Origin: Bacteroidota bacterium
Lineage (GTDB): Bacteria; Bacteroidota; Bacteroidia; 2-12-FULL-35-15
NCBI GenBank assembly: GCA_040388455.1
Contig: JAZKBX010000038.1
Span: forward strand, 80-64,079
DNA: 64,000 nucleotides
Direction: 5' to 3'
Shown here: piece after piece, positions 8,879-60,483 of the stretch
Position numbering within the stretch: position 1 is the stretch's first letter
How the letters are laid out: each line of letters opens with the position of its first letter
Translations under genes and position numbers: made by a program
The notes under the pieces: model-generated
Databases searched by the model: none
What the model was told of the DNA's origin: nothing
Seen by the model: only the letters and a program-made list of their open reading frames with translations

Positions 8879-8882
8879 TAGA

Positions 8883-33958: not shown

Positions 33959-33961
33959 AGG

Positions 33962-34732: not shown

Positions 34733-34739
34733 ACACAAA

Positions 34740-36485: not shown

Positions 36486-36486
36486 T

Positions 36487-38580
36487 ATGGAAAAAATTAC
36501 GAAAGACCATCCACTAAGCAAGAGCGAAGATATTCTGCAAACGAATATTGAAACACTTAAAAAGTTATTCCCAACTATTGTAAAAGAGGGGAAGATTGAC
36601 ATGAAAGAGTTGGAAGCTTTGCTGAGTGATGAAATAGAAACTGCTGATGAATATTACCGTTTTAATTGGGCAGGAAAAAGTGATGCAAGGCGAGAATCAA
36701 ATAAGCCTAGCACAGCTACTTTACGCCCTTGCAAAGAGGAAAGTAAAAATTGGGATAACACGGAAAATGTTTTTATCGAAGGGGATAACTTAGAAGTTTT
36801 AAAACTATTACAAAAGAGTTATTCAAACAAAATTAAATTAATTTATATAGACCCCCCTTACAATAAGGGAAAAGACTTTGTTTATCAGGATAATTACTCT
36901 GATAATTTAAAAAACTATCTCCTAAAGTCTGGCCAAATTAACGAGGAAGGCAATAAAATTAGTACTAATACTGAAAGTGATGGGAGGTTTCATAGCAATT
37001 GGCTAAATATGATTTATCCTCGGTTGAAACTAGCTCGAAATTTGCTTAAAGAGGATGGAGCAATTTTTATTAGCATTGACAATAAAGAAGTTTTTAATCT
37101 TAAGAAGGTATGTGATGAGATATTTGGAGAAGAAAATTTTGTAGAATGTATTGCTTGGAATAAAAGGATTCCCAAAAACGATAAAGGAATTGGAAATATT
37201 CATGAATACATTTTGATTTATGCTCAAAAATTTTCAAGTGATTATGAATTTACAATGAGGAAGGAAGGGCTTGAGGATATTGAGGAATTGGTACAGAAGC
37301 TAAAAAAAAGCAAAACTCCAATTCCTGAAGCAGAAAAGGAAATTAAAATATTGTATAAAAAAAAGGGCTATGATAGAGGAATTACTCTTTACAATAGCTT
37401 AAGTGACGAATATCGCATTTGGGGGAAAATAAATATGAGTTGGCCAAATTCTGACACCTTCGGTCCAAGATATATTGTTTCTCACCCCATTTCAAAGAAG
37501 CCGATGAAAATTCCCCAAAGAGGATGGAGATGGAAAGAAGACACGTTTAAAGAGGCTGCTAAAATTGTAAATGGTACATATAATGAAATTATTGAATTGC
37601 ACGATGGCACTTTTTTATGCGGTCGAATTTGGTTTGATAAAGATGAAAATACACAGCCTAGTTCAATAAATTATTTGGACGAAGTAGATACATTTCTTTT
37701 AAGGTCAATATTGTCCAGTAAGAGTGATGGGGGGATTGAAGTGGAAGAATTGTTTGAAGGGAAAAGTTTTTTTTCTTACCCGAAACCAACCACCTTGATT
37801 CAATTGCTAATTAATTCAATGAAAATGGAGTCTAATGATATTGTTTTAGATTTTTTTGCTGGGTCAGGAACAACTGCAAATGCAGTGATGCAATTAAATT
37901 CGGAAGATGGTCTAAATCGGAAATATATTTGCGTTCAATTTCCAGAACCAACTGATGAAAAAAGCGAAGCACATAAGGCTGGTTTCCTTAATATTTCTGA
38001 AATTACAAAAGAACGTATAAGGAGGTCTGGAAATAAGATTATTTCCTCATTACAGACTAGGCTGAATGAAGATAAAAAGAAAACCGCTTCTCAACTTCAA
38101 TTTGACACCAATAGTCTTTCAAAAAATAATTTAACAACTGAAAGTCTTCTCGAAAAGCTAGATACAGGGTTTAAATCATTTAAATTAGACACAAGTAACA
38201 TCAATGCTTGGGACGGCAGCTTAATCAATTTCGAAAAGAATCTATTAAACTCTGAAACAAATATAAAAATTGACAGAACAGAAGATGACGTTCTATTTGA
38301 AGTTTTGCTCAAATATGGATTAAATCTGACGGTTCCTATTGAGGAAAAAACAATTGCAGGTTGTAAGGTATACAGTGTGGGTTTAGGAGCCTTGTTTGTT
38401 TGCCTTGCAGATAATATTACAACACAGGTAGCTGAGGACATTGGGAAATGGAAAGAAAAATTAAATCCAACCAGTTGTCGTGTATTGTTTAAAGACAATG
38501 GTTTTAAAGATGACGTTGCTAAAACTAATAGCGTTCAGATTCTAAAACGTTTTGCAATTCAAGAAATCAATAGCCTTTAA
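36487..38580 (+). CDS. mod: Type III-like N6-adenine DNA methyltransferase (Mod, beta-class order)
   Basis: 697 aa. Motif IV IYIDPPYNKG precedes motif I DFFAGSGTTANA. Confidence 0.85.
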   Translation: MEKITKDHPLSKSEDILQTNIETLKKLFPTIVKEGKIDMKELEALLSDEIETADEYYRFNWAGKSDARRESNKPSTATLRPCKEESKNWDNTENVFIEGDNLEVLKLLQKSYSNKIKLIYIDPPYNKGKDFVYQDNYSDNLKNYLLKSGQINEEGNKISTNTESDGRFHSNWLNMIYPRLKLARNLLKEDGAIFISIDNKEVFNLKKVCDEIFGEENFVECIAWNKRIPKNDKGIGNIHEYILIYAQKFSSDYEFTMRKEGLEDIEELVQKLKKSKTPIPEAEKEIKILYKKKGYDRGITLYNSLSDEYRIWGKINMSWPNSDTFGPRYIVSHPISKKPMKIPQRGWRWKEDTFKEAAKIVNGTYNEIIELHDGTFLCGRIWFDKDENTQPSSINYLDEVDTFLLRSILSSKSDGGIEVEELFEGKSFFSYPKPTTLIQLLINSMKMESNDIVLDFFAGSGTTANAVMQLNSEDGLNRKYICVQFPEPTDEKSEAHKAGFLNISEITKERIRRSGNKIISSLQTRLNEDKKKTASQLQFDTNSLSKNNLTTESLLEKLDTGFKSFKLDTSNINAWDGSLINFEKNLLNSETNIKIDRTEDDVLFEVLLKYGLNLTVPIEEKTIAGCKVYSVGLGALFVCLADNITTQVAEDIGKWKEKLNPTSCRVLFKDNGFKDDVAKTNSVQILKRFAIQEINSL

Positions 38581-38590
38581 TTTTGTAAGT

Positions 38591-41500
38591 ATGGAAATTA
38601 AATTTGAAAAAGGCCTGGATTATCAAAGGGATGCTATCAATAGTGTTGTAGATATATTCGGAGGTCAAGAGATATGTAAAAGTAATTTTACGGTTTACTC
38701 GCCTGAGTATCTTGCTAAGCAAACCAACCTGGTAATGAACGATATTGGTTTTGCCAATAAGCTTCAACTAACTGAAGACCAAATTCTAGAAAATGTTCAA
38801 AAGATTCAACTTCATAATGGTTTGAAGCCTTCTATTTCTGACGAAATTGATAAGAGTCATTACGATTTCAGTATTGAAATGGAAACGGGTACAGGAAAAA
38901 CGTATGTGTATTTACGCTCCATCATGGAGATGAATCGGAAGTATGGGTTTACAAAATTCATCATTGTAGTTCCTTCTATTCCAATTAAAGAAGGAGTTTA
39001 TAAAACTTTAGAAATCACAAAAAAACATTTTCAGGAAAATTATGATGGGATAGATTATAGTTTTTTTATTTACGATAGTTCTCGCTTAAATGAAATCCGA
39101 GATTTTGCAATCAATGATAAATTGCAAATTATGGTAATCAATATTCAGGCATTCAATAAAGACCTTGAAGCTGGAACAAAAAAAGCCTCTCGTATTTTAT
39201 TAGATTATAATGATAAGTTAGGATATACGCCTATTTCATTAATACAAAATACAAGGCCAGTTGTAATTGTTGATGAACCACAAAGTACCATCAGCACGGA
39301 TTTAGCAATGCGGTCAGTTAAAAACCTGAACCCACTTACATTATTACGTTATTCTGCTACTCATAAAGACAAAGTGAATCTTATGTACAAGTTGGATGCA
39401 GTTGATGCTTACAACAAACAATTGGTAAAGCAAATTGAAGTAGCCTCAGTTAAGGTAGAAAACTCAGCAGTAAGCTCAGCATACATCCGTTTGTTATCTG
39501 TAAAAAACAAAAATGGTATTTCAGCAAAAATAGAATTGGATGTAAAAGATAAGGAGGGAAAAGCAAAAAGAATTACAAAAGAGGTAACGCAAAATAAGGA
39601 TTTGCTTCAGCTTTCAAAGCTCCCACAGTATGCTGACTACTTCATTAAGAATATATACTCAGGCGAAGGAAATGAGTACATCGAATTAGGAGATGATACC
39701 ATTTTGAAAATTGGAGAAGCAATTGGCTCAGTTGATGAGAGTGCTATTAAGCGGATGCAGATTAGCAAAACAATTGAAGAACACCTTGACAAAGAACTTA
39801 TATTAAATCCAAAAGGATTAAAGGTGTTGAGTTTGTTTTTCATTGATGCAGTAAAGCATTATCGTGTTTATGATGATGAAGGACATGCAACGAATGGTGA
39901 TTATGCAAAAATGTTTGAAGAGGAATACAAAAAACATATTAAGAAGCCGAAATACAAAACATTGTTTGAAGGAATAAAAGATATAAATACTGAAGCTTCA
40001 GATGTCCACAACGGTTATTTTTCAATGGATAAAAAAACCAAGAAGAGTAACTCAAAAGAAAAATTTGAAGTCTTTAAAGACACGAGTGGTTCTGTGGGAG
40101 CAGATGAAGACACCTACAGTTTGATAATGCGAGATAAAGAGAAATTATTAAGCTTTGAATCTAAACTTCGTTTCATCTTTTCGCATTCAGCATTAAAGGA
40201 AGGATGGGATAATCCTAATGTATTTCAGATATGTACATTGAAAGAGGCTGGTAATTCAGAAACACGCAGAAGGCAGGAAATTGGTCGAGGCTTACGTTTG
40301 GCAGTGAATCAACAAGGAGAAAGAGTTTATGGTTTTGAAACCAACAAACTCACAGTAATGGCAAGCGAATCGTATGAAGACTTTGTTGATGGATTACAAA
40401 AAGAAATTGAAAAAGAAACAGGGATTACTTTTGGTCAGTTACAATCACACGGGTTTAACAACGTGGTGGTTCAAATGATAAACAATGAACCTGTTTTCCT
40501 AGGTCAGGAGAAATCAGAAGAACTTTATAATTACTTACTGCTTAAACAATATATTGATGCAAAGGGTAAGGTACAAAACCTTTTAAGAGATGATTTAAAA
40601 GCTGGCACTGTTGATTTAGGACAGGAGTTTGAAGCACATGTTGCCAGCCAGATAATTGAAACCCTTAAACAAACAGCAGGTAAACTTGAAATTAAGCGTA
40701 ATGAAGAAAAGAAAACAGTTAAAGTAAAAGAAGCAGTTTTAGATGACCCTGAATTTAAAATGCTCTGGGACCGCATTAAATACAAAACTACCTATTCTGT
40801 TCAGTTCGACTCTCAAAAGCTCATAGAAGCTTGTATAAAGCATATCAATGACCGTTTAATTGTAAGCAGTGGCAAACTTATTTACAACAAAGTTGACCTA
40901 CAACTTACCAAGGGAGGTTTAATAGCCTCAGAACCAAAAAATGAGTACGGAAGAGTAAACCAGGAAGTAAGCGTATTACCTGACATTGTAAGCTACCTTC
41001 AAAATGAAACTCAATTAACCAGAAAGTCGATTGTAAAAATTCTTCAGGGGTGTACAAACATAAATTATTTCAAAATAAATCCGCAAAAATTTATTGAAGG
41101 ATGTATTGATATTATAAACGAGCAAATGCGTTTGCACATCGTGGATGGAATTGTTTACAGGAAAATCGGAGACAACATTTTTCACAGCCAGGAACTTTTC
41201 AAAACTGAAGAGCTTACTGGTTACTTGAAATCAAATATGATGGCAAGCACCAAATCTCCTTATGAGTATGTAGTTTTCGATAGCGGAATTGAATCTGAAC
41301 TTGCTAAAGAGTTTGAGAAAAACACAAATGTAAAAGTGTATGCGAAGCTACCAAGATGGTTTACAATTGAAACCCCGCTTGGTAATTACAACCCAGATTG
41401 GGCAGTTTTATTTGAACTCGATGGTGAAGAACAATTATTCTTTGTAGTCGAAAGTAAAGGTTCAATGGGCTATGAATTCCTACGACCATCTGAGCAAGGT

Positions 41501-41617
41501 AAAATTGATTGTGGTAAAGCTCACTTTAAAGAGCTTGCCAAAGAAAGTAAGAGTAATGTGAAATTGGTTTACATCAGCACTATGGATGATTTTACTAATA
41601 TTGCGATGGGGGCCTAA
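38591..41617 (+). CDS. res: Type III restriction enzyme Res subunit (DEAD-like helicase + PD-ExK nuclease)
   Basis: Start taken at MEIKFEKGLDYQRDAINSVVDIFGG, a typical Res N-terminus. Motifs ETGTGKT and VIVDEPQS, plus C-terminal YNPDWAVLF...FFVVESKG. Confidence 0.85.
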   Translation: MEIKFEKGLDYQRDAINSVVDIFGGQEICKSNFTVYSPEYLAKQTNLVMNDIGFANKLQLTEDQILENVQKIQLHNGLKPSISDEIDKSHYDFSIEMETGTGKTYVYLRSIMEMNRKYGFTKFIIVVPSIPIKEGVYKTLEITKKHFQENYDGIDYSFFIYDSSRLNEIRDFAINDKLQIMVINIQAFNKDLEAGTKKASRILLDYNDKLGYTPISLIQNTRPVVIVDEPQSTISTDLAMRSVKNLNPLTLLRYSATHKDKVNLMYKLDAVDAYNKQLVKQIEVASVKVENSAVSSAYIRLLSVKNKNGISAKIELDVKDKEGKAKRITKEVTQNKDLLQLSKLPQYADYFIKNIYSGEGNEYIELGDDTILKIGEAIGSVDESAIKRMQISKTIEEHLDKELILNPKGLKVLSLFFIDAVKHYRVYDDEGHATNGDYAKMFEEEYKKHIKKPKYKTLFEGIKDINTEASDVHNGYFSMDKKTKKSNSKEKFEVFKDTSGSVGADEDTYSLIMRDKEKLLSFESKLRFIFSHSALKEGWDNPNVFQICTLKEAGNSETRRRQEIGRGLRLAVNQQGERVYGFETNKLTVMASESYEDFVDGLQKEIEKETGITFGQLQSHGFNNVVVQMINNEPVFLGQEKSEELYNYLLLKQYIDAKGKVQNLLRDDLKAGTVDLGQEFEAHVASQIIETLKQTAGKLEIKRNEEKKTVKVKEAVLDDPEFKMLWDRIKYKTTYSVQFDSQKLIEACIKHINDRLIVSSGKLIYNKVDLQLTKGGLIASEPKNEYGRVNQEVSVLPDIVSYLQNETQLTRKSIVKILQGCTNINYFKINPQKFIEGCIDIINEQMRLHIVDGIVYRKIGDNIFHSQELFKTEELTGYLKSNMMASTKSPYEYVVFDSGIESELAKEFEKNTNVKVYAKLPRWFTIETPLGNYNPDWAVLFELDGEEQLFFVVESKGSMGYEFLRPSEQGKIDCGKAHFKELAKESKSNVKLVYISTMDDFTNIAMGA

Positions 41618-41636: not shown

Positions 41637-42632
41637 ATGAAAAGACTACTACAGATAAATTTCAGGAACGTAATTAATCAAGCGGTGATTGAGGCCTGGA
41701 GAAGAGTTCCGAGTGGCCCACATGAACCAGATTTTATTGCAAGTCTTGTATTATCTGGCACTCCAGGTTTTCACAACGCAATTATTGCCACCTCTGGTAT
41801 CTGGAGCAAAGTTAATACTGTTGGAGTCTTTTGTCACCAGTCGCCAATGGTAAAGTACATGGATGGAGTAACAGAAAGAAGATGTGAGTTAGGCGATGTT
41901 CTTTGGTGTCATTTTCATACCAATAAAGAGGGCGATACTTTTCGAAATGCTATTCTTTTTCAGTCTAAAATGTCTGCCACTTTGACTCCTGCAATCCACT
42001 ACAATGATACACAACTTAAACTGTATCGTGAATGGCCTCAGTACGAATATTGTCGTTCAGGATCCTTGAATGGTCAAGTCAGAAATCTATTACCTAAACA
42101 GCCTCATGCTGGTGCGCAATATATGTTTATTGATAATAGCCCCATAACAAATCCGAGTTTGGGTGTGCAAAATTTAAATCCGTATACTACATTTCCAATT
42201 GGAACAACAACCATTTCTCCACTACTTCTCGGTAATACTCCTTTGGAATTAGAATTAGTCCGATTCTTGTTTTTGGGCAGTGGACGGTCTTTTGATTCTT
42301 ACCGCAACAGAAATGCATCTGATGAATGGACCAAAATTATTTGGGACTTGTTAAGAAATGGAATGAGCCGTGCATTTAATCGCAGAAGAGCGGGATTCAA
42401 TAATTCACCAAGAATAAGTCGTTACAAAAGCAGTATGGATGGCATGTTAACTTTTACTGGTTCATCTGATGACATAAGCTCTGGACTTGATGGTGAGTTC
42501 TACAATGAATATAAAGATTTATTTTCTTCGGATGATGGAGGGAACAAAGAAAACAATTATACACCAGAAGATAAAGAAGGTGGAGGGGCTCCTTCGATAA
42601 TTATTTTCAGAACAAATGAAAGTAAGGGATAA
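41637..42632 (+). CDS. Hypothetical protein, possible degenerate PD-(D/E)xK-like core, disordered C-terminus
   Basis: 331 aa, starting 19 nt after the res stop on the same strand. No family recognised. Contains the segment CELGDVLWCHFH...NAILFQSKM. The tail is rich in G/S/D/N. Confidence 0.6.
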   Translation: MKRLLQINFRNVINQAVIEAWRRVPSGPHEPDFIASLVLSGTPGFHNAIIATSGIWSKVNTVGVFCHQSPMVKYMDGVTERRCELGDVLWCHFHTNKEGDTFRNAILFQSKMSATLTPAIHYNDTQLKLYREWPQYEYCRSGSLNGQVRNLLPKQPHAGAQYMFIDNSPITNPSLGVQNLNPYTTFPIGTTTISPLLLGNTPLELELVRFLFLGSGRSFDSYRNRNASDEWTKIIWDLLRNGMSRAFNRRRAGFNNSPRISRYKSSMDGMLTFTGSSDDISSGLDGEFYNEYKDLFSSDDGGNKENNYTPEDKEGGGAPSIIIFRTNESKG

Positions 42633-42752: not shown

Positions 42753-44384
42753 ATGCCATTAAGAAAAACATCTATATATAAATACTTGGAACCTGATTAC
42801 AGATACAAAGAAAAATATTGGCCAATTCTCACTGACTTTGTTAAAAAAAAATATGGTGATTCAGAAATTACATCACTAGTTGCGGTTCAGGAAACTCTAA
42901 AAGAGTGCTTTTCGATACTTTGTAAAGAATTTATTGTAGTACTTAAAAAAGAAAAAAGAGCTTCATTTTTCATATTTGTTCAAGACCTTCATGAGGACTC
43001 TATTGACATGTGGCGAGCACAACTTAACGGAGATAAATTTCCAATAAACCAAGAAGACTTCGCGGCTACAAGAAGAATTATGAAATATATTCTTGAACAG
43101 GGGTGTGGTTTGGATTTGATCGGCCATGATTTCTTTTTTAAAGAAATAAATGAACAGATTGAACCTTACACTAAACATCTCGAAGAGCTTGTTTATATAG
43201 GAACTTGGGCGTTTACGATAAGTGAGTATATTGCTCGTAGCCAAATTTGCAATCATTCCGTAAGTTTGAAAGTAGAAAACAATGAGTTTGTAATTAATGT
43301 GAAGCCCCCCTTCAATTCTCTTTTTAGCTTCATATTTGCAGACAACCAACGACACAATAAAGCAGTAGTAGTATCAAATTCAATTATTGAACTGAAGAAA
43401 ATACTGAACGATGATTTGAAAACTAATTATGATTATTTGTGTGGAGCTGTTTTTGGTCAGCTTCAAGATAAAAAATTCAGATTTTCAATATTTAAACTCG
43501 ATGAGCTGATTAAAGAATTAATAAAAAAGCATGGATACTCAAAAGATGTAGTGGAAATTTTTTATTCTGGATTGATGGTTAATAAAAACAATGTACTTAG
43601 TATTGAGGATTGCATATTGAAAACCCAAGATAGCAGGCGGTATATGTACAGACCGATATTAGAATATACTATTGACGAAAAAACCTTTTGGATAATCGGA
43701 GCAAATAAATGGTCCGAAAGTTTGACTGCACTGACAACTAATTGTATCCCTTTTGGTCAATTTCCTGATGAATGGAAACAATTGATTCCAATATGTGATT
43801 TCTGTAATAGAATAATGAACACCCATGACGTAGTGCTTGAAGAACCAGCTATCGAAATAATTAAGAATGTTAATTTTAAATTTGACAGAAATATAAAGTC
43901 GTTAAAAAAGACCAATAATCAAGGTGTTAGCATAATAAAAAAAAACGTTGGTGAAATTGACCTCGTTTTTATAGATGAAAAAAACAAGTTGATTTATGTT
44001 GCCGAATGTAAGCACAATAAATCCAGATTTGAATACAATAACTGGAAAAGGGACATCTCAAATTTCAGGTCTAAGTATGAAAGCCAATTGAGCAATAAAT
44101 TTAACTGGATTTCCAATAATAAACTTCCCTTGCTCGAACATTTTGAAATTTTATACGCCTGCAAAATTGAAAGTCAGGAGAATTACAATGTGATTCCTCT
44201 TTTTATTATTAATGCTCCAACACTATATATGTATGACAGCGAATATCTGGTCGTAACCTTACACGATTTAGAATTACTTTTAAGTGGCAAACATGTTACC
44301 CATGAATTTAATGGGGAAATAAATGGGAAAAAAGTAAATATTAAAAAACCATATTTACAAAATGCAGAAAAGCTTTTTATTTAA
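42753..44384 (+). CDS. Hypothetical protein with C-terminal PD-(D/E)xK (NERD-like) nuclease motif
   Basis: 543 aa. The roughly 340 N-terminal residues match nothing I recognise. The C-terminal part carries GEIDLVFIDEKNKLIYVAECKHNK (D...ExK). Confidence 0.6.
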   Translation: MPLRKTSIYKYLEPDYRYKEKYWPILTDFVKKKYGDSEITSLVAVQETLKECFSILCKEFIVVLKKEKRASFFIFVQDLHEDSIDMWRAQLNGDKFPINQEDFAATRRIMKYILEQGCGLDLIGHDFFFKEINEQIEPYTKHLEELVYIGTWAFTISEYIARSQICNHSVSLKVENNEFVINVKPPFNSLFSFIFADNQRHNKAVVVSNSIIELKKILNDDLKTNYDYLCGAVFGQLQDKKFRFSIFKLDELIKELIKKHGYSKDVVEIFYSGLMVNKNNVLSIEDCILKTQDSRRYMYRPILEYTIDEKTFWIIGANKWSESLTALTTNCIPFGQFPDEWKQLIPICDFCNRIMNTHDVVLEEPAIEIIKNVNFKFDRNIKSLKKTNNQGVSIIKKNVGEIDLVFIDEKNKLIYVAECKHNKSRFEYNNWKRDISNFRSKYESQLSNKFNWISNNKLPLLEHFEILYACKIESQENYNVIPLFIINAPTLYMYDSEYLVVTLHDLELLLSGKHVTHEFNGEINGKKVNIKKPYLQNAEKLFI

Positions 44385-44422
44385 ATATTTCAATAAAATA
44401 TTAAGTAAATAAAATAAAAAAC

Positions 44423-45334
44423 ATGATAGATTTTATTGGAGACATCCACGGACATGCGGACAAACTTGAAGCCTTACTTATAAAGTTAGGATATACCATA
44501 AAAAACGGAACATATTTTCATCCTGAAAGGAAAGTATTGTTTGTAGGGGATTATATTGACAGAGGGCCCAAGATAAGAGAAACGCTGGATATTGTAAGGA
44601 GAATGGTGGAAAGTGAAAATGCAATTGCCTTAATGGGTAATCATGAATATAATGCTTTATGTTTTCATTTTCAGGAAACTGAAGGAGGGCATTTACGCAA
44701 ACATTTAATTAAAAACATCATCCAGCATTATGAAACATTAAAACAATTTCAAAATAGACAAAAAGAATATGAAGATTATTTAGAATGGTTTAAAACTCTC
44801 CCGTTGTTTTATGAGACAGATAAATTTAGAGCTGTTCATGCTTGTTGGGACAATAACCACATTGATTATTTGCGTCAGCAATTATCAAATGATAAACTTA
44901 CAGATGAATTAATATACCAATCTGTAAAAAAAGGAACACAACTCAACCTCGCAATTGAAGACACTTTAAAAGGCAAAGAAATAACAATGCCGAAAGATCT
45001 TGATTTTACGGATAAAGATGGCACTAAAAGAACTGAAATAAGAATAAAATGGTGGGAGGACCCAGCGCATTCAACCTATAAATCAATAAGTGTTGAACCC
45101 CTGGAAAATTTGCCTGAAAGCCCTGTTGAAATATCCTTATTTAATGATTCTAATTATTACAGCAAAAACAATAAAGCTGTTTTTTTCGGCCACTACTGGC
45201 TTAAAGGAGCCCCGACACTTTACAGAAATAATATTTGCTGTTTAGATTATAGTGTTGCAAAACAAGGGCATTTGGTCGCTTACAGGTTGGATGAAGAAAA
45301 AGACCTTAGCACCAATAAAATGGTCTATGTATAA
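44423..45334 (+). CDS. PPP-family metallophosphoesterase (ApaH/PrpE/lambda-phosphatase-like)
   Basis: 303 aa. Motifs GDIHGH, GDYIDRGP and GNHE. Confidence 0.8.
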   Translation: MIDFIGDIHGHADKLEALLIKLGYTIKNGTYFHPERKVLFVGDYIDRGPKIRETLDIVRRMVESENAIALMGNHEYNALCFHFQETEGGHLRKHLIKNIIQHYETLKQFQNRQKEYEDYLEWFKTLPLFYETDKFRAVHACWDNNHIDYLRQQLSNDKLTDELIYQSVKKGTQLNLAIEDTLKGKEITMPKDLDFTDKDGTKRTEIRIKWWEDPAHSTYKSISVEPLENLPESPVEISLFNDSNYYSKNNKAVFFGHYWLKGAPTLYRNNICCLDYSVAKQGHLVAYRLDEEKDLSTNKMVYV

Positions 45335-45440
45335 ATAATTTAGGAAGTTCTCGAAAAAAAATGAAACCAATTAACAATCCTAAAAAAATGAAACTAATTA
45401 ATAGCCTTAAATGGAATAATTCTAGGCAATTAATTTTAGT

Positions 45441-45635
45441 TTACACTTTGTCATATTCGTCAAGGTATTCTCTTAAGTCCCGTCCTTGCGTGTGAATGCA
45501 CTCACAGAATTTTACTCCAGCTACTTCGTTGTCGGTGCCTGTAAACTGTTTCTCACAATCGGAAAGCGAGTTTCGTGGCATTATTTCGTGACCGTAGATA
45601 AAGTAGAGGATGAAAACTCCAACTAATATTATCAC
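45441..45635 (-). CDS. Small hypothetical membrane-anchored protein
   Basis: 64 aa with one N-terminal hydrophobic helix. ATGA overlap with the upstream small ORF. Confidence 0.3.
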   Translation of the reverse strand: MIILVGVFILYFIYGHEIMPRNSLSDCEKQFTGTDNEVAGVKFCECIHTQGRDLREYLDEYDKV

Positions 45636-45910
45636 TCCCCAAAAAACAGTGTCGGGAATTTGTTGCTGTACTTTTGGGGTTTCTCTAATATGAGAGGGTC
45701 AGAAACCTTTTTGAATGGTAAAATGAATTTTATTCTGTCGTAGTTCCAAAAGAGAACGCACAGGTTTGCCAATACCATCAAAGGTGCGGTCATATATGAG
45801 CCTTCAAAACGAACTGCAAACGAAAGAATGCAGATGTTCAAAATAATTGGGAGGTACAGCATGGCTCCAATGTCACTGTCCTGGGAATTAGCAACAGAAT
45901 GGCCGCTCAA
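45632..45910 (-). CDS. Small hypothetical membrane protein
   Basis: 92 aa with two hydrophobic segments. The start is uncertain (internal Met at MLYLPII). Confidence 0.3.
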   Translation of the reverse strand: MSGHSVANSQDSDIGAMLYLPIILNICILSFAVRFEGSYMTAPLMVLANLCVLFWNYDRIKFILPFKKVSDPLILEKPQKYSNKFPTLFFGE

Positions 45911-45961
45911 TGAATGTGTAGTAATAACCCGTGTGTTGTAGTGTCTCTAAATAATGTCCCA

Positions 45962-46307
45962 TTAGATGATTGACCGATAAGTCACTAGCGAACCGCTCGC
46001 CTCATTATGCTCTTCATCTTTTGCACCATACACTAATGTTACTATTCCCTTCTTCATCTTTCCCTTCAAAAACGACACCTGCTCTTCGTTCTCTTTAAGT
46101 TCTTGGTGATAACATTTCTTGAACTCTTGCCATTTATTGGGGTCGTGCCCAAACCCTTCTCGAAGCATTGTACTGGGCGCAATATCCTTTAACCTTAAAT
46201 CAACACTAGCCTTTTCTTTTGTCAGACCTCTTGGCCCAGAGCCTGTCCACGAGAATACGCATGCCATCTCCTTTATCCGGCTTTTCATACACTCTTTTGA
46301 TTTTCAT
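45962..46307 (-). pseudogene. DUF488 (YeaO-like) gene interrupted by a 1-nt frameshift
   Basis: From the ATG at 46307 the minus strand reads MKIKRVYEKPDKGDGMRILVDRLW, then goes out of frame. The track ORF frame continues ...GPRGLTKEKASVDLRLKDIAPS...VTLVYGAKDEEHN. Deleting one G in ctctgggcc (about 46233-46238) restores the canonical RILVDRLWPRGL. Confidence 0.75.
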
Positions 46308-46537
46308 TTTGCTTTATTTGGTTTGTGTTCAAGAATATAATCTTCCAATATGGAAGTAAGTGAATCATAGTATGCCTTTAAATTTATAATTTTTATTTTA
46401 GGGTGTGCTTTATTGGGAATTGTAATCGGCATTTCTCCTAAATATTTAGACAGCTCGGGATACTTTTCCATTATGGTCATCGTAATTTCCAGTATTTTGG
46501 CATTAAGTTCTTTTTCTGTTTCCATAACTTTTGTCAT
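46304..46537 (-). CDS. Hypothetical small protein
   Basis: 77 aa, helical. ATGA overlap with the DUF488 start supports it as a real gene. Confidence 0.45.
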   Translation of the reverse strand: MTKVMETEKELNAKILEITMTIMEKYPELSKYLGEMPITIPNKAHPKIKIINLKAYYDSLTSILEDYILEHKPNKAK

Positions 46538-46545
46538 TTATTCAA

Positions 46546-47214
46546 CTAAAACGCTTCTTTGATAATTGATTTTTTATCCACCTGCAAATTCACTAATATC
46601 TTCTCTATTACATCCATCATTGGCGGAGGTCCGCATACATAAAACAGTTTGTTTATTCCTCCACTGTTTGCTTTAATAAAACCTTCGGTGATGTGTCCAT
46701 TACCATATCCATCAAGTTTTTCATCAGATAATATGTTGATGAAATTAGTCCCTAATAATTTTTTAAATTCACCTTCAAGTATTATGTCGGCTTTGGTTTT
46801 ATTGGCAAAGAAGAGCTTGTTATTACCAATTTTGTTTTTTGATTGAAGGTACCTAAAGATAGAAATGAAGGGGGTAACACCTGCTCCCCCGGCAATAAAT
46901 ACACCTTCTCCTTTGTATGCGATTGCGCCAAACACATCATGCAAAATCAATTCATCATCCTTTTTAAGTAGCAGAAGCTCATTGGTAACGCTCTTATGCG
47001 AAGGATAAGTTTTGATGGTAAACTCAATACAATCGTTCTCGGGAAGGCAAGTGAATGTGAATGGCCTTTTTTTATCCTTCCAACCGTTTTTGTTTATGGA
47101 AACATCGGTAGCTTGTCCAGGAGTAAATGTATAGTTAGATGGTTTTGTAGTTACAATTTGAAGTACATCGTGTGTAACATTTTTTATTGATACTATTTTT
47201 ACGTGATGTTTCAT
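46546..47214 (-). CDS. FNR-family FAD/NAD(P)-binding oxidoreductase
   Basis: 222 aa. Contains RPFTF (FAD-binding site) and GGAGVTPF (NAD(P) site). Confidence 0.7.
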   Translation of the reverse strand: MKHHVKIVSIKNVTHDVLQIVTTKPSNYTFTPGQATDVSINKNGWKDKKRPFTFTCLPENDCIEFTIKTYPSHKSVTNELLLLKKDDELILHDVFGAIAYKGEGVFIAGGAGVTPFISIFRYLQSKNKIGNNKLFFANKTKADIILEGEFKKLLGTNFINILSDEKLDGYGNGHITEGFIKANSGGINKLFYVCGPPPMMDVIEKILVNLQVDKKSIIKEAF

Positions 47215-47903
47215 TTAGTGTTATTAATCAAAGAAATAAATTCAATTTTTGTTTTTTCATTCTGGAATTCTCCTGAATAGCTTGCAGTAATTGTGCTCGT
47301 ATTTGTGTCTTTAATTCCACGCGAGGCGACACAAAGATGCACCGCATCAATAATTACTGCAACATTGTCTGATTGCAATGCCTCTTTTAAACCCTCCGCA
47401 ATTTGGTTAGTCAGTCGTTCTTGTACCTGTGGTCGTTTTGCGTAGTATTGCACCAAACGATTTATTTTTGATAGCCCAATCACTTGTCCATTTGAAATAT
47501 ATGAAACATGTACTTTGCCAATTATGGGTACAAAATGATGTTCGCAGTATGAATACAGCGTTATGTTTTTTTCAATCAACATTTCGTTGTAGTGATATTT
47601 ATTTTCAAAAAGTTTTACGTCAGGTTTGTTTGCTGGATTTAATCCACTAAATACTTCTTTTACATACATTTTAGCTACTCTATGTGGTGTGCCTTTCAGG
47701 CTGTCATCGTTCAAATCAAGCCCCATTGTGTACATAATCTCTTTAAAATGATAAGCAATGTGTTTTACTTTTTCCTCGTCACTTATTAAAAAAGCATCTG
47801 GCCGCAGTGGCGTTTCTATTGATGTTGCTAAATGTTCATCTCCAATTTCATCTATGGCAATGTCAAGCATGAGGGTATTCAACATAATTTCGTTCGGTTT
47901 CAT
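47211..47903 (-). CDS. folE: GTP cyclohydrolase I
   Basis: 230 aa. Motifs CEHHFVPIIGKVHVSY, GLSKINRLVQYYAKRPQVQERLT and HLCVASRG. Confidence 0.9.
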   Translation of the reverse strand: MKPNEIMLNTLMLDIAIDEIGDEHLATSIETPLRPDAFLISDEEKVKHIAYHFKEIMYTMGLDLNDDSLKGTPHRVAKMYVKEVFSGLNPANKPDVKLFENKYHYNEMLIEKNITLYSYCEHHFVPIIGKVHVSYISNGQVIGLSKINRLVQYYAKRPQVQERLTNQIAEGLKEALQSDNVAVIIDAVHLCVASRGIKDTNTSTITASYSGEFQNEKTKIEFISLINNTK

Positions 47904-48273
47904 ATAGTATGATTTTCAAATTGTATTCATTATTAATTTTGCTCCTTAAAATATTCCAAATAACCATTGCAATATTTTCTACTGTAGGGTTAAGGGTCTT
48001 AAATTCGGTTACATCAAGATTAAGATTTTTATGGTCAAACTTCCTTAAAACATACTTTTTTACAATCGTGCTTAATAGTTTGGTGTCGTAAACGTATCCT
48101 GTTTCCGAATCAATCTCTCCTGTTATTTGCAGTATAAGTACGTAGTTATGTCCATGAAAATTCGGGTTGTTACATTTACCGAAAATTGCTTTGTTCTTCT
48201 CGTCTGTCCATTTAGTATTATGTAACCTATGGGCTGCATTAAAATGTTCTTTTCTATATATGGTTGCTCTCAT
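47863..48273 (-). CDS. 6-pyruvoyl-tetrahydropterin synthase / QueD-family protein
   Basis: 136 aa. Motifs FNAAHRL and CNNPNFHGHNY. It overlaps the annotated folE start by 41 nt. Confidence 0.8.
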   Translation of the reverse strand: MRATIYRKEHFNAAHRLHNTKWTDEKNKAIFGKCNNPNFHGHNYVLILQITGEIDSETGYVYDTKLLSTIVKKYVLRKFDHKNLNLDVTEFKTLNPTVENIAMVIWNILRSKINNEYNLKIILYETERNYVEYPHA

Positions 48274-48287
48274 AGATTACAATAAAA

Positions 48288-48334
48288 CACCCCCGTCTTA
48301 CTTCCCGTAAATCTGAGATGAAAGATCGGGGGTG
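48288..48334 (-). terminator. Hairpin terminator after the 48352 gene
   Basis: 8-bp GC-rich stem cacccccg / cgggggtg with a long loop. On the minus strand it is followed by TTTTATT. Confidence 0.45.
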
Positions 48335-48351
48335 AGTTTTCAATTAACCCT

Positions 48352-49029
48352 CTATTTCTTTTTCTCTTCTTTAAATTTCTCTGGGTATTGTTTAATAATT
48401 CCACTTGCAAGTACGGTCCCCATTTCTACCATGTGTTGTCGTGCTTCATCAAATTTTGAAACTGCATTGGTATAATCATTTTTTAATAAATAAACTGCAT
48501 AAGCAGTAGTTTGGTCTATGTGCGTTTTCATCATGGGTTGGGTTGCTGTTGCCGGCCAATTTTTAGGGTTTGCCGCAGTTAGAAAATCGGCAATATCCTT
48601 AGCGTTTGCATACCAATCGGCAAGGACTTTGTCTAAAGCGATTTTATCATTGCTTTTTGCAGCAGTAAGCACCGGTACAGCCTGCTTGATGTGGGTGGTT
48701 AAAAGTGCTGCAAGTTTATCACCGGCTTCTTTTCCGTAAATTGGCGAAATGGCAGCACCAATATCTTTTTGATTTTGTAATAGTCTGTCTAATGAAGGTT
48801 GTAAGGCTGTGGGATTATGGAAGAATGCATCTACGGTTGCATAAGTCCAAATCATGTGGTCTGCCCATAATTTTTGCATGGCTGTATGTAATTGTTGGGT
48901 TTTGCTGTCCTTTCCACACAGCTCACACATTAAAGGTGATGGCATTTTGCTTTTTGTAAAGCTCGATAAAGTTAGAACTGAAAGTCCTACAATTGCCAAT
49001 ATGCTAAATACTTTTTTCATTTTTTTCAT
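48352..49029 (-). CDS. Hypothetical secreted/lipoprotein-like helical protein
   Basis: The ORF is open to 49071. The signal-peptide Met (MKKMKKVFSILAIVGLSVLTLSS) is at 49029, and the promoter-like motif at 49076-49108 leaves no room for a 49071 start. Confidence 0.55.
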   Translation of the reverse strand: MKKMKKVFSILAIVGLSVLTLSSFTKSKMPSPLMCELCGKDSKTQQLHTAMQKLWADHMIWTYATVDAFFHNPTALQPSLDRLLQNQKDIGAAISPIYGKEAGDKLAALLTTHIKQAVPVLTAAKSNDKIALDKVLADWYANAKDIADFLTAANPKNWPATATQPMMKTHIDQTTAYAVYLLKNDYTNAVSKFDEARQHMVEMGTVLASGIIKQYPEKFKEEKKK

Positions 49030-49075
49030 TTTGTTTTTGTTTAATTGTTTAAATAAAAATATTGAGTTCATCTAA

Positions 49076-49108
49076 TTAGAGTAATCGAGAATCCAAAAGG
49101 TTACAAAG
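49076..49108 (-). promoter_or_regulatory. Candidate ECF-sigma-type promoter (copy A)
   Basis: Minus strand CTTTGTAACCTTTTGGATTCTCGATTACTCTAA. It is 27/33 identical to copy B at 50340-50372, and both sit about 40-47 nt upstream of a start codon. Confidence 0.45.
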
Positions 49109-49130
49109 GTGCGAGACTTTAAAATCTCGT

Positions 49131-49802
49131 TTACAATAATTCGGTACTTGATGCAATTTGAATCATTACTCTTTCTACTATACTATCGCAATAAACAAGA
49201 TTAAATTCAAATATATCTTCTGCTGTGTACGATTTTTCAATTTCTTTTTTCAACATTGTTTTAGCACGATTAAGACGAACCTTTACGTTTGCTTCACTAA
49301 TACTTAATGCATCTGCTGTTTCCATTATATTCAGCCCGTTAATTTCTCTTAAAGAAAAAACCATACTGTAATCCAATGGCACTTGTGTCAAAGCATTTTC
49401 AATAACAAAACTTAATTCTCTATTCAATACTGTTTTGTTTGTGTCGGTGTGTTGTTGGTTTGAAAACATTGGGATTGATTTATCACTAATTTCATTTGCA
49501 ACTTCATTTTTAAAACTAAATTTCTGTCGTTTTCTAAAACAGTTGCTTAGCATTATTTTTATTATCCAAGTTTTAAATGAGGAGCGACCTTCAAATTTTG
49601 ATAAATTGGCATAGGCATCAATAAAAGTATCTTGCATCAAGTCCTGTGTATCTTCGTGATTGTAGTTATAAGACCTACCAGTTTTATATAGAAATGAGTT
49701 ATTTCTCCTGATAAGAATTTCAAATAATGCAATTTCTCCGTTCAGAATTTTTTGTATAACTTCTATGTCAGAATATTGCTCGGAAATCTTCACGTTTTTC
49801 AT
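49131..49802 (-). CDS. ECF-type RNA polymerase sigma-70 factor
   Basis: 223 aa. Region 2 (DLMQDTFIDAY...) and region 4 (LREINGLNIMETADALSISEANVKVRLNRA), with a short C-terminal extension. Confidence 0.85.
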   Translation of the reverse strand: MKNVKISEQYSDIEVIQKILNGEIALFEILIRRNNSFLYKTGRSYNYNHEDTQDLMQDTFIDAYANLSKFEGRSSFKTWIIKIMLSNCFRKRQKFSFKNEVANEISDKSIPMFSNQQHTDTNKTVLNRELSFVIENALTQVPLDYSMVFSLREINGLNIMETADALSISEANVKVRLNRAKTMLKKEIEKSYTAEDIFEFNLVYCDSIVERVMIQIASSTELL

Positions 49803-49915
49803 CTTGTAAATTTATTGTTTTATCCTTTCATCATTCTCTCATTAACTTACTGGGTTTGTAAGTCAATTGTATTTTAATCTTCATTATTTTAGCAAACCCA
49901 ATAAATTAAGCATAT

Positions 49916-50299
49916 TTAGGCAACAATCTTTGCAATTCGCGCCAAAGAAAATGCGCTTATTGCCATTACAAGGTCACGCACAGCCACATCAAGATAGTTG
50001 CCACTTGCTAGTAGTGTAAGGGCAATTAGTGTAAGCCAAGCTGCTACTATAAGTCCACCTATCGCAGGTCTTGCAAGTACAATTATGCCTGCAACAATTT
50101 CAATTACTCCAATAGTCATCATAAATGTATGTGGCGCAAAAGGAATCATTCCTGCAATTCCGGGATGAATGTAGCTTTCCCAATGTGTCAGTAAATTTGT
50201 GAATTTGTCAAGCCCAGCAACAATTGGGACTATACCAAAGGTTAGTTTCAGTAAATTGAAAGTCGGCTTAAGCGTTTGATTTAAATTAGTTGTGTTCAT
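49916..50299 (-). CDS. DoxX-like small membrane protein
   Basis: 127 aa with 3-4 hydrophobic helices. Confidence 0.4.
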   Translation of the reverse strand: MNTTNLNQTLKPTFNLLKLTFGIVPIVAGLDKFTNLLTHWESYIHPGIAGMIPFAPHTFMMTIGVIEIVAGIIVLARPAIGGLIVAAWLTLIALTLLASGNYLDVAVRDLVMAISAFSLARIAKIVA

Positions 50300-50339
50300 T
50301 TTTAATTGTTTTAGTTGAATTTAATTGCTTTATACTACT

Positions 50340-50372
50340 TTAGAGTAAGTGAGAAATGGAAAGGTTACAAAG
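50340..50372 (-). promoter_or_regulatory. Candidate ECF-sigma-type promoter (copy B)
   Basis: Minus strand CTTTGTAACCTTTCCATTTCTCACTTACTCTAA, 41 nt upstream of the 50299 start. Confidence 0.45.
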
Positions 50373-50448
50373 AAATTGGATTAGGGTCGTTTAGGATGGT
50401 GGGCGGGCTTGGGTGCGTATGCTGAATAAAAATGTCAATTTTGAGTTT

Positions 50449-50778
50449 TTATTCTAAAATTTCAATTGTCGCACCATCCAAATCAGATGATATTAAAATT
50501 TGACAGGAAAGACGAATGTCGGATGCTTCATAACCAAACTTTGAAAGCGTTGAAGGTTCGTTGCGATCTTTAGTTATAGAATTTCCTTTTAATCCGGTAA
50601 CTCGTATGATACAAGTTGCACATCTGCCCATTCCACTGCATTCACCAAAGGAATCTAAATACATCTTGTCCCTGAGTAACTCCATCAAATTTCTATAGTC
50701 GCCCGGGTAGGTTTCAATAATTTGTTCTAAATCGTTATCTGCTACTGTAAATTTTATAGTGCTTCTTGTCATTCCCAA
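50449..50778 (-). CDS. 2Fe-2S ferredoxin-like protein
   Basis: 109 aa. Cys pattern GECSGMGRCATC...LSCQ. Confidence 0.7.
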   Translation of the reverse strand: MGMTRSTIKFTVADNDLEQIIETYPGDYRNLMELLRDKMYLDSFGECSGMGRCATCIIRVTGLKGNSITKDRNEPSTLSKFGYEASDIRLSCQILISSDLDGATIEILE

Positions 50779-51230
50779 AAAGGATCCGTGAGATTATCGA
50801 CAAATTTGCAGTCAGAATGATACAGTTGTATTTGTTGCAATTGTTCTTTGGTTGCTACTTTTTGAATTTCATTGAACAACACCCGTTCTTCAAAACGAAT
50901 ATGCTTTTCCAGTTCTTCTTCAATCAAACTAATAGATTTATGAATGTCATTTTCATTCTCAAAAAGACGTTTCAATCTTCTGTGTTCGGCAAGGGCTTGC
51001 TTAACCAACTCGTTTTGGTTTCCCAGTACTGGGAATAGAAATTTTTCTTCTATTTCAAAATGTTGTTCTAAATGATTGTCCCAAAACCAATCCACATACA
51101 TTTTAATCCTTTCCGTTGCAATGTTTCGCTTAATGCCTTCTCTGATTTTCCAACATAGCAATAAGCCGTGATGATGGTCACGGCCCAGTGGCTTTAATGC
51201 TTCTATTCTTTTTTGAGGATTTTGCTTCAT
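50769..51230 (-). CDS. Hemerythrin-like (HHE cation-binding) domain protein
   Basis: 153 aa. His/Glu-rich helical pattern (DHHHGLLLCWKI..., EHFEIEE, EKHIRFEE). Confidence 0.55.
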   Translation of the reverse strand: MKQNPQKRIEALKPLGRDHHHGLLLCWKIREGIKRNIATERIKMYVDWFWDNHLEQHFEIEEKFLFPVLGNQNELVKQALAEHRRLKRLFENENDIHKSISLIEEELEKHIRFEERVLFNEIQKVATKEQLQQIQLYHSDCKFVDNLTDPFWE

Positions 51231-51244
51231 CTTTATTTAATGCA

Positions 51245-51568
51245 TTAATTTTGAATAGAACCAATCAGAAGAATACATTCGAAGTTTGTTTTGTTTTTAA
51301 TGGAATGTTTTGTATTTAAAGGAAAGATAAAAAAATCTCCGATTGTTCCTATATATGTTTCGGAATTAATAATAATTTCTGGAGTTCCCTCTAATACGTA
51401 GGCGTATTCTGTTTTATCTGGATGGAGGTGTTCAGGATAAGTTGCCAGGGGAGAAACTTTTATCAGTTTAAGCCCGCCATTAGGTAGCAAAAGGAGTTCT
51501 TTGCCGGAAAAACCTTTTATTTTTCCGGCTGTCCATGAAAGTTCCAGGGTGTTGATTTTATTTTCCAT
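51245..51568 (-). CDS. Cupin-domain protein
   Basis: 107 aa. Motif PEHLHPDKTEYAYVLEG...FIFPLNTKHS. Confidence 0.7.
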   Translation of the reverse strand: MENKINTLELSWTAGKIKGFSGKELLLLPNGGLKLIKVSPLATYPEHLHPDKTEYAYVLEGTPEIIINSETYIGTIGDFFIFPLNTKHSIKNKTNFECILLIGSIQN

Positions 51569-52299
51569 TATTCTGTTTTTAGCATTTGCTTTTCAAGCTC
51601 AATAGCTTTTGGAAATAAAATGTTATTCTCCAAATGAATGTGTAGATGTAAATCAGTTTCAAACTCTTTTAACAAGGCAAAAGTTACCAGATACGTGTTG
51701 CAAGCATCTTGTGGCGGTGTGTAACTATTACTTAATGATTCAATTTTTCTAAATCGATCCCCTTCTGTGGTGTGCTCGTTCATCATCATTTGAATAGGAT
51801 TTTCAACTGTGCCAAAATGAGGAACTGATAACTCTGTACAGTCTTGTTTTGCCTTTGCCATTTTTCTTACAAAGGGAAACAAAACCAATTCTTCTTTTTT
51901 CATGTGCATTGCTAACTCGCCAGCAGTAGCATTAAAATGCTCCTTGATTACAAACAATTCCGGATGACGTTCTCCGTGAACTCGACATATTTTATCGAGA
52001 TAGGGTTTTATTTCTTGTGTTTTTTCTTCCACATAACGGTGATGTTTTTTCTCTAGGTAATCTGCTAATAAATCAATTGGCCAAGATTTATAGTCGGTTG
52101 AAACTCCCGAGGATTCTTGATTAATGCTGTTTAAATCTGTTACAACCAATTTTGAATCTAATTTTTTTGCAACGCAAGCGTCTTCAATAGTTCTACTTCC
52201 TTGACAACAAAAGTCAATGCCGTATTTTTTAAAAACTGATGCTGCTCTGTAGTCTTGTGCTACCAATTCTCCAATGATACTGTTTTCTTGAATATTCAT
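51568..52299 (-). CDS. Iron-sulfur cluster repair di-iron protein (RIC/ScdA/YtfE family)
   Basis: 243 aa. N-terminal ScdA_N motif ASVFKKYGIDFCCQG plus a hemerythrin-like C-terminus. Confidence 0.8.
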   Translation of the reverse strand: MNIQENSIIGELVAQDYRAASVFKKYGIDFCCQGSRTIEDACVAKKLDSKLVVTDLNSINQESSGVSTDYKSWPIDLLADYLEKKHHRYVEEKTQEIKPYLDKICRVHGERHPELFVIKEHFNATAGELAMHMKKEELVLFPFVRKMAKAKQDCTELSVPHFGTVENPIQMMMNEHTTEGDRFRKIESLSNSYTPPQDACNTYLVTFALLKEFETDLHLHIHLENNILFPKAIELEKQMLKTE

Positions 52300-52312
52300 A
52301 ATGATATGTTTT

Positions 52313-53221: not shown

Positions 53222-53664
53222 ATTGTTGTGTTTTTAAAAAGTGATAGACCAAAAGTTGCAAGACATATCGTTTTAATTATCTCCATCCCGACATAATAGA
53301 AATGCAAGTTGGAAGGCGGTACAGTTTGCCGTTGAATGTGTAATTCTGCTCTGGTATCAAGTGCGGGTAAGAGCCAAAAAGTTTGAATAAGCAAGAGTGC
53401 AAAAGGAATAATAATTAGTAGGTTCTGCCATTCCCAAAGCTCGATGGATCCTAACCATATTATATTGACGATGATAGCTATGGCAAAAATCCATTCCACT
53501 TTGTTGAGTGCGTTAAAAACCAATCGTCCAATACCTAAACCCAAAGGGACTGTAGTTCCGGGTGCACGAAATTTGAGCCACGCTTCCATAAAGCTTATGG
53601 CACAAACAAATCCTATCCAAAGAAAGGTTGCGGTGACAGCTATGGGCATTTTCACAGTTATCAT
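53218..53664 (-). CDS. Hypothetical 4-TM membrane protein
   Basis: 148 aa, hydrophobic. ATGA overlaps on both sides. Confidence 0.45.
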   Translation of the reverse strand: MITVKMPIAVTATFLWIGFVCAISFMEAWLKFRAPGTTVPLGLGIGRLVFNALNKVEWIFAIAIIVNIIWLGSIELWEWQNLLIIIPFALLLIQTFWLLPALDTRAELHIQRQTVPPSNLHFYYVGMEIIKTICLATFGLSLFKNTTI

Positions 53665-54056: not shown

Positions 54057-54061
54057 TTCCT

Positions 54062-54466: not shown

Positions 54467-54470
54467 CTTA

Positions 54471-54731: not shown

Positions 54732-54735
54732 TGTT

Positions 54736-55743: not shown

Positions 55744-55753
55744 TTCGTATATG

Positions 55754-57502: not shown

Positions 57503-57549
57503 TCCTTATTTATATTGGATAAATTTGTCCATTATTTATTCAAATTTTT

Positions 57550-58875: not shown

Positions 58876-59072
58876 CTTTTAACAAATAATTACTTTTTGT
58901 AAAGTGTTTTTACAAACTCTACATGTTAAAAGATACTAATTTGTGGACATTAAAAGTCTTGTTATTCATTCTCTTATGTATGTGAAGACTATCAATATTG
59001 ACAGGTTGTCCATCACCTGCTTGATGAGTGTCAAAACTTACAGTTTGATTTTGAATTAATTGTTTCATTGTG

Positions 59073-60482: not shown

Positions 60483-60483
60483 T

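Follow-up and report, generated by a model that had tools for sequence, protein, structure and literature searches.

Two adjacent genes at positions 42753-45334 of a 64,000-nucleotide stretch of DNA from a Bacteroidota bacterium (GenBank assembly GCA_040388455.1, contig JAZKBX010000038.1; the whole stretch is called the window in the following) are probably independent of each other, the first coding for a mobile defense-island nuclease that resembles the C-terminal domain (CTD) of the defense protein Upx, the second for a widely conserved phosphatase of the PPP family. Both open reading frames (ORFs) start with ATG and lie on the forward strand. The first encodes a protein of 543 residues (42753-44384, 120 nt after the preceding ORF) and the second, behind a gap of 38 nt (44385-44422), a protein of 303 residues (44423-45334), all of which agrees with a former interpretation made from the DNA letters alone (the sequence-only reading). 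This reading had proposed that both genes form a defense module and had named two unrelated single genes as the alternative. It is the alternative that turned out to be correct, with non-linkage in both directions and a breakpoint inside the gap. The interpretation builds on gene structure, conservation, non-linkage, breakpoints, defense neighborhoods and fold similarity, which are established.

For the analysis of linkage, 31 loci from different species, each encoding a homolog of the nuclease, were fetched with up to 10 kb per side, and tblastn searches found the phosphatase in none of them (0/31 within 10 kb either side). Likewise, no Metallophos neighbor was present in the loci of homologs with about 60% identity (L034-L036, from Aurantibacillus and two metagenome contigs) or at a distant nuclease copy on a Hymenobacter plasmid. 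In the opposite direction, among about 80 metagenomic phosphatase loci and four more from look-ups, the nuclease occurred only in the window and in locus L037 of the same lineage. Co-occurrence of both families across genomes was thereby searched for and not found outside the lineage of the window.

Near-identical strains show this most directly. Locus L040 encodes a phosphatase with 99% protein identity to that of the window, and upstream of it lie a type ISP restriction-modification (R-M) enzyme, ExoVII, a SEFIR/TIR protein and a Gabija-like pair of AAA_15 and UvrD. DNA homology between the window and L040 (blastn, 98.5%) is limited to 44391-45442; it begins 7 nt past the stop codon of the nuclease gene and stops 108 nt past that of the phosphatase gene. 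L037, for its part, has the upstream island in common with the window and diverges downstream at 45442, where its match ends as well. Therefore, the phosphatase gene is located on a conserved islet of 1,052 bp (the gene flanked by about 30 nt on its upstream and 108 nt on its downstream side), which carries different cargo on both sides and is conserved at 93-98% among strains (window 44391-45442; about 9970-11020 in L037 and L040). According to blastn and a four-strain alignment, the synteny breakpoint between island cargo and phosphatase islet falls into the 38-nt gap, and the upstream cargo comes in different versions, one of which includes the nuclease. Both families also differ in abundance and divergence, the phosphatase having more than 7,453 homologs and evolving slowly, the nuclease comprising 113 clusters with a step in identity from 94% to 60%. 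That the phosphatase lies next to the nuclease is a coincidence brought about by the insertion of the island. A scan for sigma-70 promoters and terminators gave counts no higher than the shuffled expectation and, its consensus being unsuited to Bacteroidota, was left unused.

The nuclease signature of the 543-residue protein, GEIDLVFIDEKNKLIYVAECKHNK (residues 400-423), is part of the catalytic motif G400-E-I-D403 ... E418-C-K420-H-N422-K-S-R425 (43950-44027, forward strand). Its presence had been recognized in the sequence-only reading with a spacing of 13 residues, whereas counting gives D403-x14-E418-x-K420. In an alignment of 38 sequences, no variation is seen at G400, D403, K420, N422 and R425, E418 is conserved to at least 90%, and D and K remain invariant across a 73-sequence alignment (A3) which includes relatives down to about 16-45% identity; judged by this conservation of the sequence, a chance match is excluded. 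In a structural model, D403 is found in beta-strand 402-408 and E418/K420 in the following strand 413-420, as in PD-(D/E)xK cores, the alpha/beta core as a whole spanning residues ~360-543 (43830-44381, forward strand). The feature that defines the PD-(D/E)xK superfamily, an acidic residue in beta2 together with (D/E)xK in beta3, is thus found in the protein according to the model, the conservation and weak viral fold matches. The latter, obtained from a viral structure library, were to PD-(D/E)xK nucleases, were confined to the core and had query template modeling scores (TMq) of at most 0.18. All this bears out the former assignment to PD-(D/E)xK nucleases.

The same cannot be said for the label "NERD-style", as the Pfam scan at E <= 0.1 did not match the NERD profile (PF08378); its sole source is the UniRef naming of some homologs. 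The 543-residue protein matched neither Pfam nor NCBIfam models, and PADLOC models only marginally. DUF234, the sole Pfam entry at E <= 0.1, was rejected for being sub-threshold (E = 0.018) and covering only a short stretch around the catalytic motif. PDC-S27 (PADLOC, E = 0.009, residues 400-448) was discarded as it spans the catalytic motif only and none of 10 divergent relatives matched it at E <= 0.01; together, the DUF234 and PDC-S27 matches are confined to residues 398-448. A PurC-like match (NF010567, E = 0.0046) was likewise dismissed, with 15.8 bits compared with a cutoff of 581 bits and a short stretch near the catalytic motif. The protein shares the catalytic motif and the alpha/beta core with families of the PD-(D/E)xK superfamily such as NERD, DUF234, Cas4-like proteins and viral exonucleases, whereas its N-terminal domain of 355 residues is found in none of them.

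Concerning this N-terminal part, about 340 residues had been described as lacking a recognizable domain. This holds for sequence libraries, as Pfam, PADLOC and NCBIfam yielded no match for it, and does not hold for structure comparison. The full-length protein was modeled with AlphaFold2 from the 38-sequence alignment without templates (mean predicted local distance difference test, pLDDT, 91.6; predicted template modeling score, pTM, 0.90), and the model consists of a mostly helical N-terminal region (residues ~1-355), followed by the alpha/beta nuclease core. Compared with the PDB, its sole significant match was Upx (PDB 9wuf, released in February 2026; E = 1.6e-9, probability 1.00, TMq 0.54, 554 columns), the next match having E = 1.8e-3 and a TMq of 0.15. 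To test whether the Upx match rests solely on the generic nuclease core, residues 1-355 (42753-43817, forward strand) were folded separately (pLDDT 91.8). Again, Foldseek against the PDB returned 9wuf as the only significant match (E = 4.2e-4, probability 1.00, TMq 0.57, 346 columns), with all other matches at E >= 0.15. The prediction of the N-terminal region that had been suggested as a check was thus carried out with a positive outcome, and the domain may be regarded as Upx-like, its proposed role being that of a regulatory or sensor scaffold. At the sequence level, three of 73 divergent relatives matched the PADLOC Upx model (PDLC02221; best E = 2.4e-4), and no other PADLOC family was matched by more than one of them.

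The structure and the trigger of Upx were described only in 2026 (PMC13099982; PMC13601566). SeUpx (PDB 9wuf) is a protein of 1,272 residues with an N-terminal domain (NTD, 1-515), a middle domain (MD, 516-714) and a CTD (715-1272), and its canonical PD-(D/E)xK core (1121-1272) contains the catalytic residues D1161, E1176 and K1178 (PMC13099982). It acts as a Mg2+-dependent 3'-5' exonuclease on single-stranded DNA (ssDNA) with a preference for 3' overhangs, forks and D-loops (PMC13099982). Upx homologs, including one from the Bacteroidota genus Hydrobacter, were reported to be activated by the phage large terminase, and in AlphaFold 3 models the terminase is threaded through the sensor region at the N-terminus (PMC13601566). 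The two studies conflict with regard to the activator (gp16 versus large terminase) and the outcome (direct immunity versus cell death) (PMC13099982; PMC13601566), and the NTD is considered either an atypical nuclease or, in the Evans model, a terminase sensor.

The matched block of about 550 contiguous residues is most probably the CTD of Upx (SeUpx 715-1272). This assignment is based on the facts that the canonical core is located C-terminally and is collinear with the rest of the match, that the distance from D to E is 15 residues in the 543-residue protein and in SeUpx alike, that the CTD comprises 558 residues compared with 543 here, and that residues 261-420 of a distant relative (P0226) align to positions 1062-1214 of the 1271 positions of the PADLOC Upx profile. 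Accordingly, both proteins have the D-x14-E-x-K spacing in common (D1161/E1176/K1178 in SeUpx, D403/E418/K420 here), and in the model the fold of the effector half appears to be shared for the helical domain as well as for the catalytic core. Both are also encoded by single genes residing in defense islands, and Upx is known from Bacteroidota, too (HpUpx). In contrast, the 543-residue protein has less than half the size of SeUpx, lacks a counterpart of the NTD (1-515) and the MD (516-714), and its sequence similarity to Upx is below detection by HMMER. As currently defined, Upx is a polypeptide of ~1,200-1,300 residues with NTD, MD and CTD, whereas the members of the present family have 480-580 residues. 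The C-terminal PD-(D/E)xK core with D...ExK is present, as seen from the alignment and the model; an N-terminal terminase sensor is missing, with neither a polypeptide ahead of the CTD-like block nor a conserved partner gene. The protein therefore fails membership in Upx as now defined and most plausibly represents a compact variant of an established type of defense protein. Short or truncated proteins were excluded from the published Upx census, so that the family would have been left out of it.

The family of the 543-residue protein comprises 113 clusters at 90% identity and at least 530 representatives at 50% identity. Nearly all members have 480-580 residues and can be aligned end to end, every member with a named source organism stems from Bacteroidota, and identity to the window protein falls directly from 94% to 60% among the 113 clusters. 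Clustering of ORFs within 10 kb per side yielded no neighbor family in more than 6 of the 31 loci and thus no conserved partner gene, and none of the large neighbors is a full-length Upx. Known defense genes adjoin family members in many lineages, in line with the sequence-only reading. A type III R-M system adjoins the nuclease in the window, together with GmrSD, and in L003; further neighbors are DrmA of DISARM (L008), a GajB-like helicase (L013), Lit (L014), SduA of Shedu along with GajA of Gabija (L017) and PDC-M54A (L018). The neighbor families of L014 and L017 recur in L015 and L016 and, downstream of the nuclease, in L023. A SMEK/pAgo-associated protein is encoded beside the nuclease in L026, and L025 has a member of this protein's family. 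Loci of the homologs of about 60% identity contain SIR2, HsdR and GmrSD (L034) or AbiV and NACHT (L035), and batch-scanned neighbors of nuclease homologs include HamB, bSEFIR, PifA, McrBC and a KAP NTPase. Taken together, the 543-residue family behaves as a stand-alone gene moving horizontally between defense islands. No phage-encoded copies were found in this family, and a phage or plasmid origin was rejected, as the sole plasmid copy is a distant one, located among metal-resistance genes.

Several observations weigh against the interpretation as a CTD-like defense nuclease. The window protein itself had no match to the PADLOC Upx model at E <= 0.1, the HMMER family profile (A1) did not recover the 9wuf sequence at E <= 10, and a search with P0226 against PDB sequences did not find 9wuf either. 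The structural alignment to Upx, made from a predicted structure, has only 12-13% identity and a root mean square deviation (rmsd) of 7-8 A, and the position of the match on the CTD is one that we infer, the output of the structural search containing no aligned Upx residues. For SeUpx, deletion of the NTD abolishes defense, the CTD alone protects against no phage, and the CTD without the MD binds ssDNA poorly (PMC13099982). Furthermore, enrichment in defense islands was judged by named neighbors, not by a genome-wide statistic; the PADLOC family counts per neighbor set (274 versus 77) were not used as such because one protein matches dozens of redundant models. Finally, ordinary genes adjoin some of the homologs, namely PNPase in L010 and metal-resistance genes on the Hymenobacter plasmid.

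The second gene encodes a protein with a significant match to Pfam Metallophos (PF00149; E = 5.6e-14, 53.5 bits compared with a cutoff of 21.5), and the motifs GDIHGH, GDYIDRGP and GNHE are all found in its translation, so that the former assignment to the PPP-family metallophosphatases stands. More than 7,453 homologs were obtained at E < 1e-20, hundreds of them with 75-80% identity and 303 residues. The best 120 of these are 75-100% identical, about 115 of them 75-81%, and nearly all have exactly 303 residues; named organisms among these best 120 are Saprospiraceae, Lutibacter, Ferruginibacter and Gillisia. Such a pattern fits a resident gene that evolves slowly rather than a gene of immunity. 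Among solved structures, the closest relative is PDB 4j6o (E = 2e-15), deposited as "Metallophosphoesterase", which we take to be the phosphatase domain of Clostridium thermocellum Pnkp. With Pnkp, PrpE and ApaH the protein shares its N-terminal 120-150 residues containing GDxHG, GDxxDRG and GNHE, whereas its scores are far below the curated cutoffs (Pnkp TIGR04075, 77.7 versus 750 bits, in the phosphatase segment only, Pnkp positions 183-299; PrpE NF010148, 65.8 versus 340 bits; ApaH NF001204, 56.8 versus 176 bits) and its C-terminal half (~150-303) has no match. As it has neither a kinase or ligase domain nor a Hen1 neighbor, it is not Pnkp.

It seems rather unlikely that this phosphatase is itself defense-associated and works with variable partners instead of being a housekeeping gene beside a hotspot. 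Such a role could be suspected from defense or toxin-antitoxin genes flanking it in several genera: HsdR, AAA_5 with PDDEXK_7 and GmrSD in L038, McrBC, WYL, AbiE and HipA in L121, and in L123 the genes described below. In addition, a PADLOC scan of 126 neighbors matched a type I methyltransferase, BrxA, PsyrTA, ShosA, BnzB, HEC-06 and PDC-S24, and the cargo differs on either side within one species. However, 75-80% identity over many genera and a very high abundance are unlike typical immune genes, the phosphatase has no PADLOC match and no conserved neighbor among the about 80 loci, and in L122 and L124 it is surrounded by ordinary metabolic and replication genes. Mobile-element genes are found around it in L039. 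Hence the reading of the 303-residue protein as a conserved chromosomal phosphoesterase which often borders variable DNA is preferred. As a separate observation, L123 (2825-8226) contains, downstream of an 80%-identical phosphatase, two VWA proteins, a PP2C phosphatase and a Ser/Thr kinase, an arrangement like the TerY-P defense triad.

For the nuclease, two further explanations have to be considered. An improbable one is that it represents a solitary restriction-type endonuclease, for instance a modification-dependent type IV enzyme, whose N-terminal domain reads DNA instead of sensing a phage protein and which cuts foreign double-stranded DNA. The PD-(D/E)xK core, the location in islands rich in R-M genes (a type III system both in the window and in L003, GmrSD nearby) and the single gene without a methyltransferase partner, as expected for type IV, would agree with this, as would the nickase Nt.BspD6I among the second-tier fold matches (E about 2e-3) and one relative matching a PADLOC type II restriction endonuclease model (1.8e-5). 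On the other hand, the Nt.BspD6I matches with TMq 0.15 and an rmsd of 24 A are essentially noise, the N-terminal domain alone matches Upx only, and searches of Pfam, PADLOC and NCBIfam revealed no domain known to read DNA, such as SRA or winged helix. There is also little probability that the protein is a non-immune nuclease for DNA repair, recombination or mobile-element maintenance which is merely carried by genomic islands. In this case, the integrase, resolvase and transposase genes close to some copies, the copies amid plasmid metal-resistance genes and adjoining PNPase, and the UniRef entries named NERD domain-containing would find an explanation. Yet no recombinase family is conserved as a neighbor in the 31 loci, Pfam gave no NERD match, known defense systems directly adjoin the nuclease in many independent lineages, and its sole structural relative is a proven defense protein. 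Both explanations are less supported than a compact Upx-like nuclease, since the N-terminal domain resembles Upx only and no recombinase is consistently linked.

The proposed two-gene defense module, with a phosphatase that acts on a nucleotide signal or a phosphoprotein controlling the nuclease, is refuted as a general arrangement and highly improbable altogether. It could be suspected from the same strand and the 38-nt gap, an arrangement retained in strains that are 94-100% identical, and from the only ~25-30 nt that L040 has in common with the window upstream of the phosphatase start codon, so that the gene may be read through from upstream. However, the partners are found together in none of the 31 loci, at none of the homologs of about 60% identity and, outside the lineage, in none of the about 80 phosphatase loci. 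The nuclease is missing from a strain whose phosphatase is 99% identical, the breakpoint lies within the gap, the families differ strongly in evolutionary rate and abundance, and the phosphatase has no PADLOC match. The non-linkage removes a false two-gene system from consideration, and it also calls for caution, as two genes standing close together on one strand at an island's border may be separated by a junction, with cargo on one side and a conserved resident on the other.

The nuclease gene is the last cargo gene of a defense island whose genes are all encoded on the forward strand, namely a SNF2-like helicase of 1051 residues (30803-33958), DUF4391 (33962-34732), GmrSD (34740-36485), the type III methyltransferase Mod (36487-38580), the type III restriction subunit Res (38552-41617) and an orphan ORF of 331 residues (41637-42632), which starts 20 nt after the stop of Res. 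The genes from 30803 to 41617 form one same-strand run in which Mod and Res overlap by 29 nt, and the run may be a composite R-M-like system instead of a plain type III pair. The 331-residue ORF, which matched nothing in Pfam, PADLOC, NCBIfam or PDB sequences, occurs in L037 and is missing from all 31 other nuclease loci, and for the latter reason a split Upx made up of the 331-residue and the 543-residue protein was rejected. In L003 (Taishania pollutisoli, 133-11620), a type III R-M system lies upstream of and on the same strand as a nuclease homolog with 46% identity; its Res has 60% identity to that of the window, and genes for 572 and 423 residues stand between R-M system and nuclease in place of the 331-residue ORF. 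The window and L003 may thus go back to a common ancestral island with a swapped middle. Directly before the island, the reverse strand (22473-29689) encodes SbcD (422 residues), SbcC (1244 residues) and an OLD-family AAA_15 and TOPRIM nuclease (723 residues) similar to Gabija GajA.

Around the phosphatase islet, further differences between strains were observed. In L040 it is flanked by the type ISP R-M, SEFIR/TIR and Gabija genes upstream and by a Metallophos-nSTAND protein downstream, and in L037 it is followed by DUF3800, Mrr_cat, DUF4365-TPR, HEPN_Swt1 and CYTH. This looks like a two-sided defense hotspot anchored on one conserved gene. Directly 3' of the phosphatase stop codon, at about 45353-45406, the window contains two imperfect tandem copies of ~24-27 nt, AAAAAAAATGAAACCAATTAACAATCCT and AAAAAAATGAAACTAATTAATAGCCTT, which L037 and L040 have kept as well. 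Stopping about 35 nt short of position 45442, where the breakpoint recurs, they may serve as a site of recombination or regulation or may form a tiny ORF. Beyond the breakpoint, 16.8 kb of the window (45442-62239) with housekeeping-looking genes (DUF488, FolE, PTPS/QueD, ECF sigma factor) take the place of 9.2 kb with defense genes in L037 (11020-20216). Homology resumes at window position 62239, and the difference reflects either a large replacement or a rearrangement.

Returning to the interpretation of the first gene as an Upx-CTD-like nuclease, a possible mode of action can be outlined by analogy with the CTD of Upx. The protein would be a Mg2+-dependent nuclease using D403, E418 and K420 and might attack the DNA of an invading phage at single-stranded ends or in replication intermediates, and its helical N-terminal domain would keep the catalytic core in place, gate its activity and read an infection signal. 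It is on this analogy that we infer an anti-phage role, the substrate and the trigger. As the protein has neither the NTD nor the MD of Upx, either the retained domain would have to perceive the activating signal or the signal would have to come in trans, and given that the CTD of SeUpx alone is unprotective and, without the MD, a poor DNA binder, a CTD-only protein may work differently. Tentatively, and with considerable doubt, the 543-residue family could be seen as a self-sufficient minimal Upx, in which a helical sensor or gate is joined to a PD-(D/E)xK effector, and as the ancestral module of full-length Upx.

If this were true, a minimal Upx would detect phages without NTD and MD, full-length Upx would have gained its N-terminal terminase-threading sensor later, and the counterpart of SeUpx ~715-1120, regarded as a scaffold up to now, would itself have a function in trigger recognition. 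A natural and widespread family corresponding to the CTD-like half would offer a simpler system for the role of the non-catalytic part and the gating of the nuclease and could show whether NTD and MD are sensors added later. The defense islands of Bacteroidota gain a further single-gene defense candidate, an unannotated family that comprises at least 530 clusters at 50% identity.

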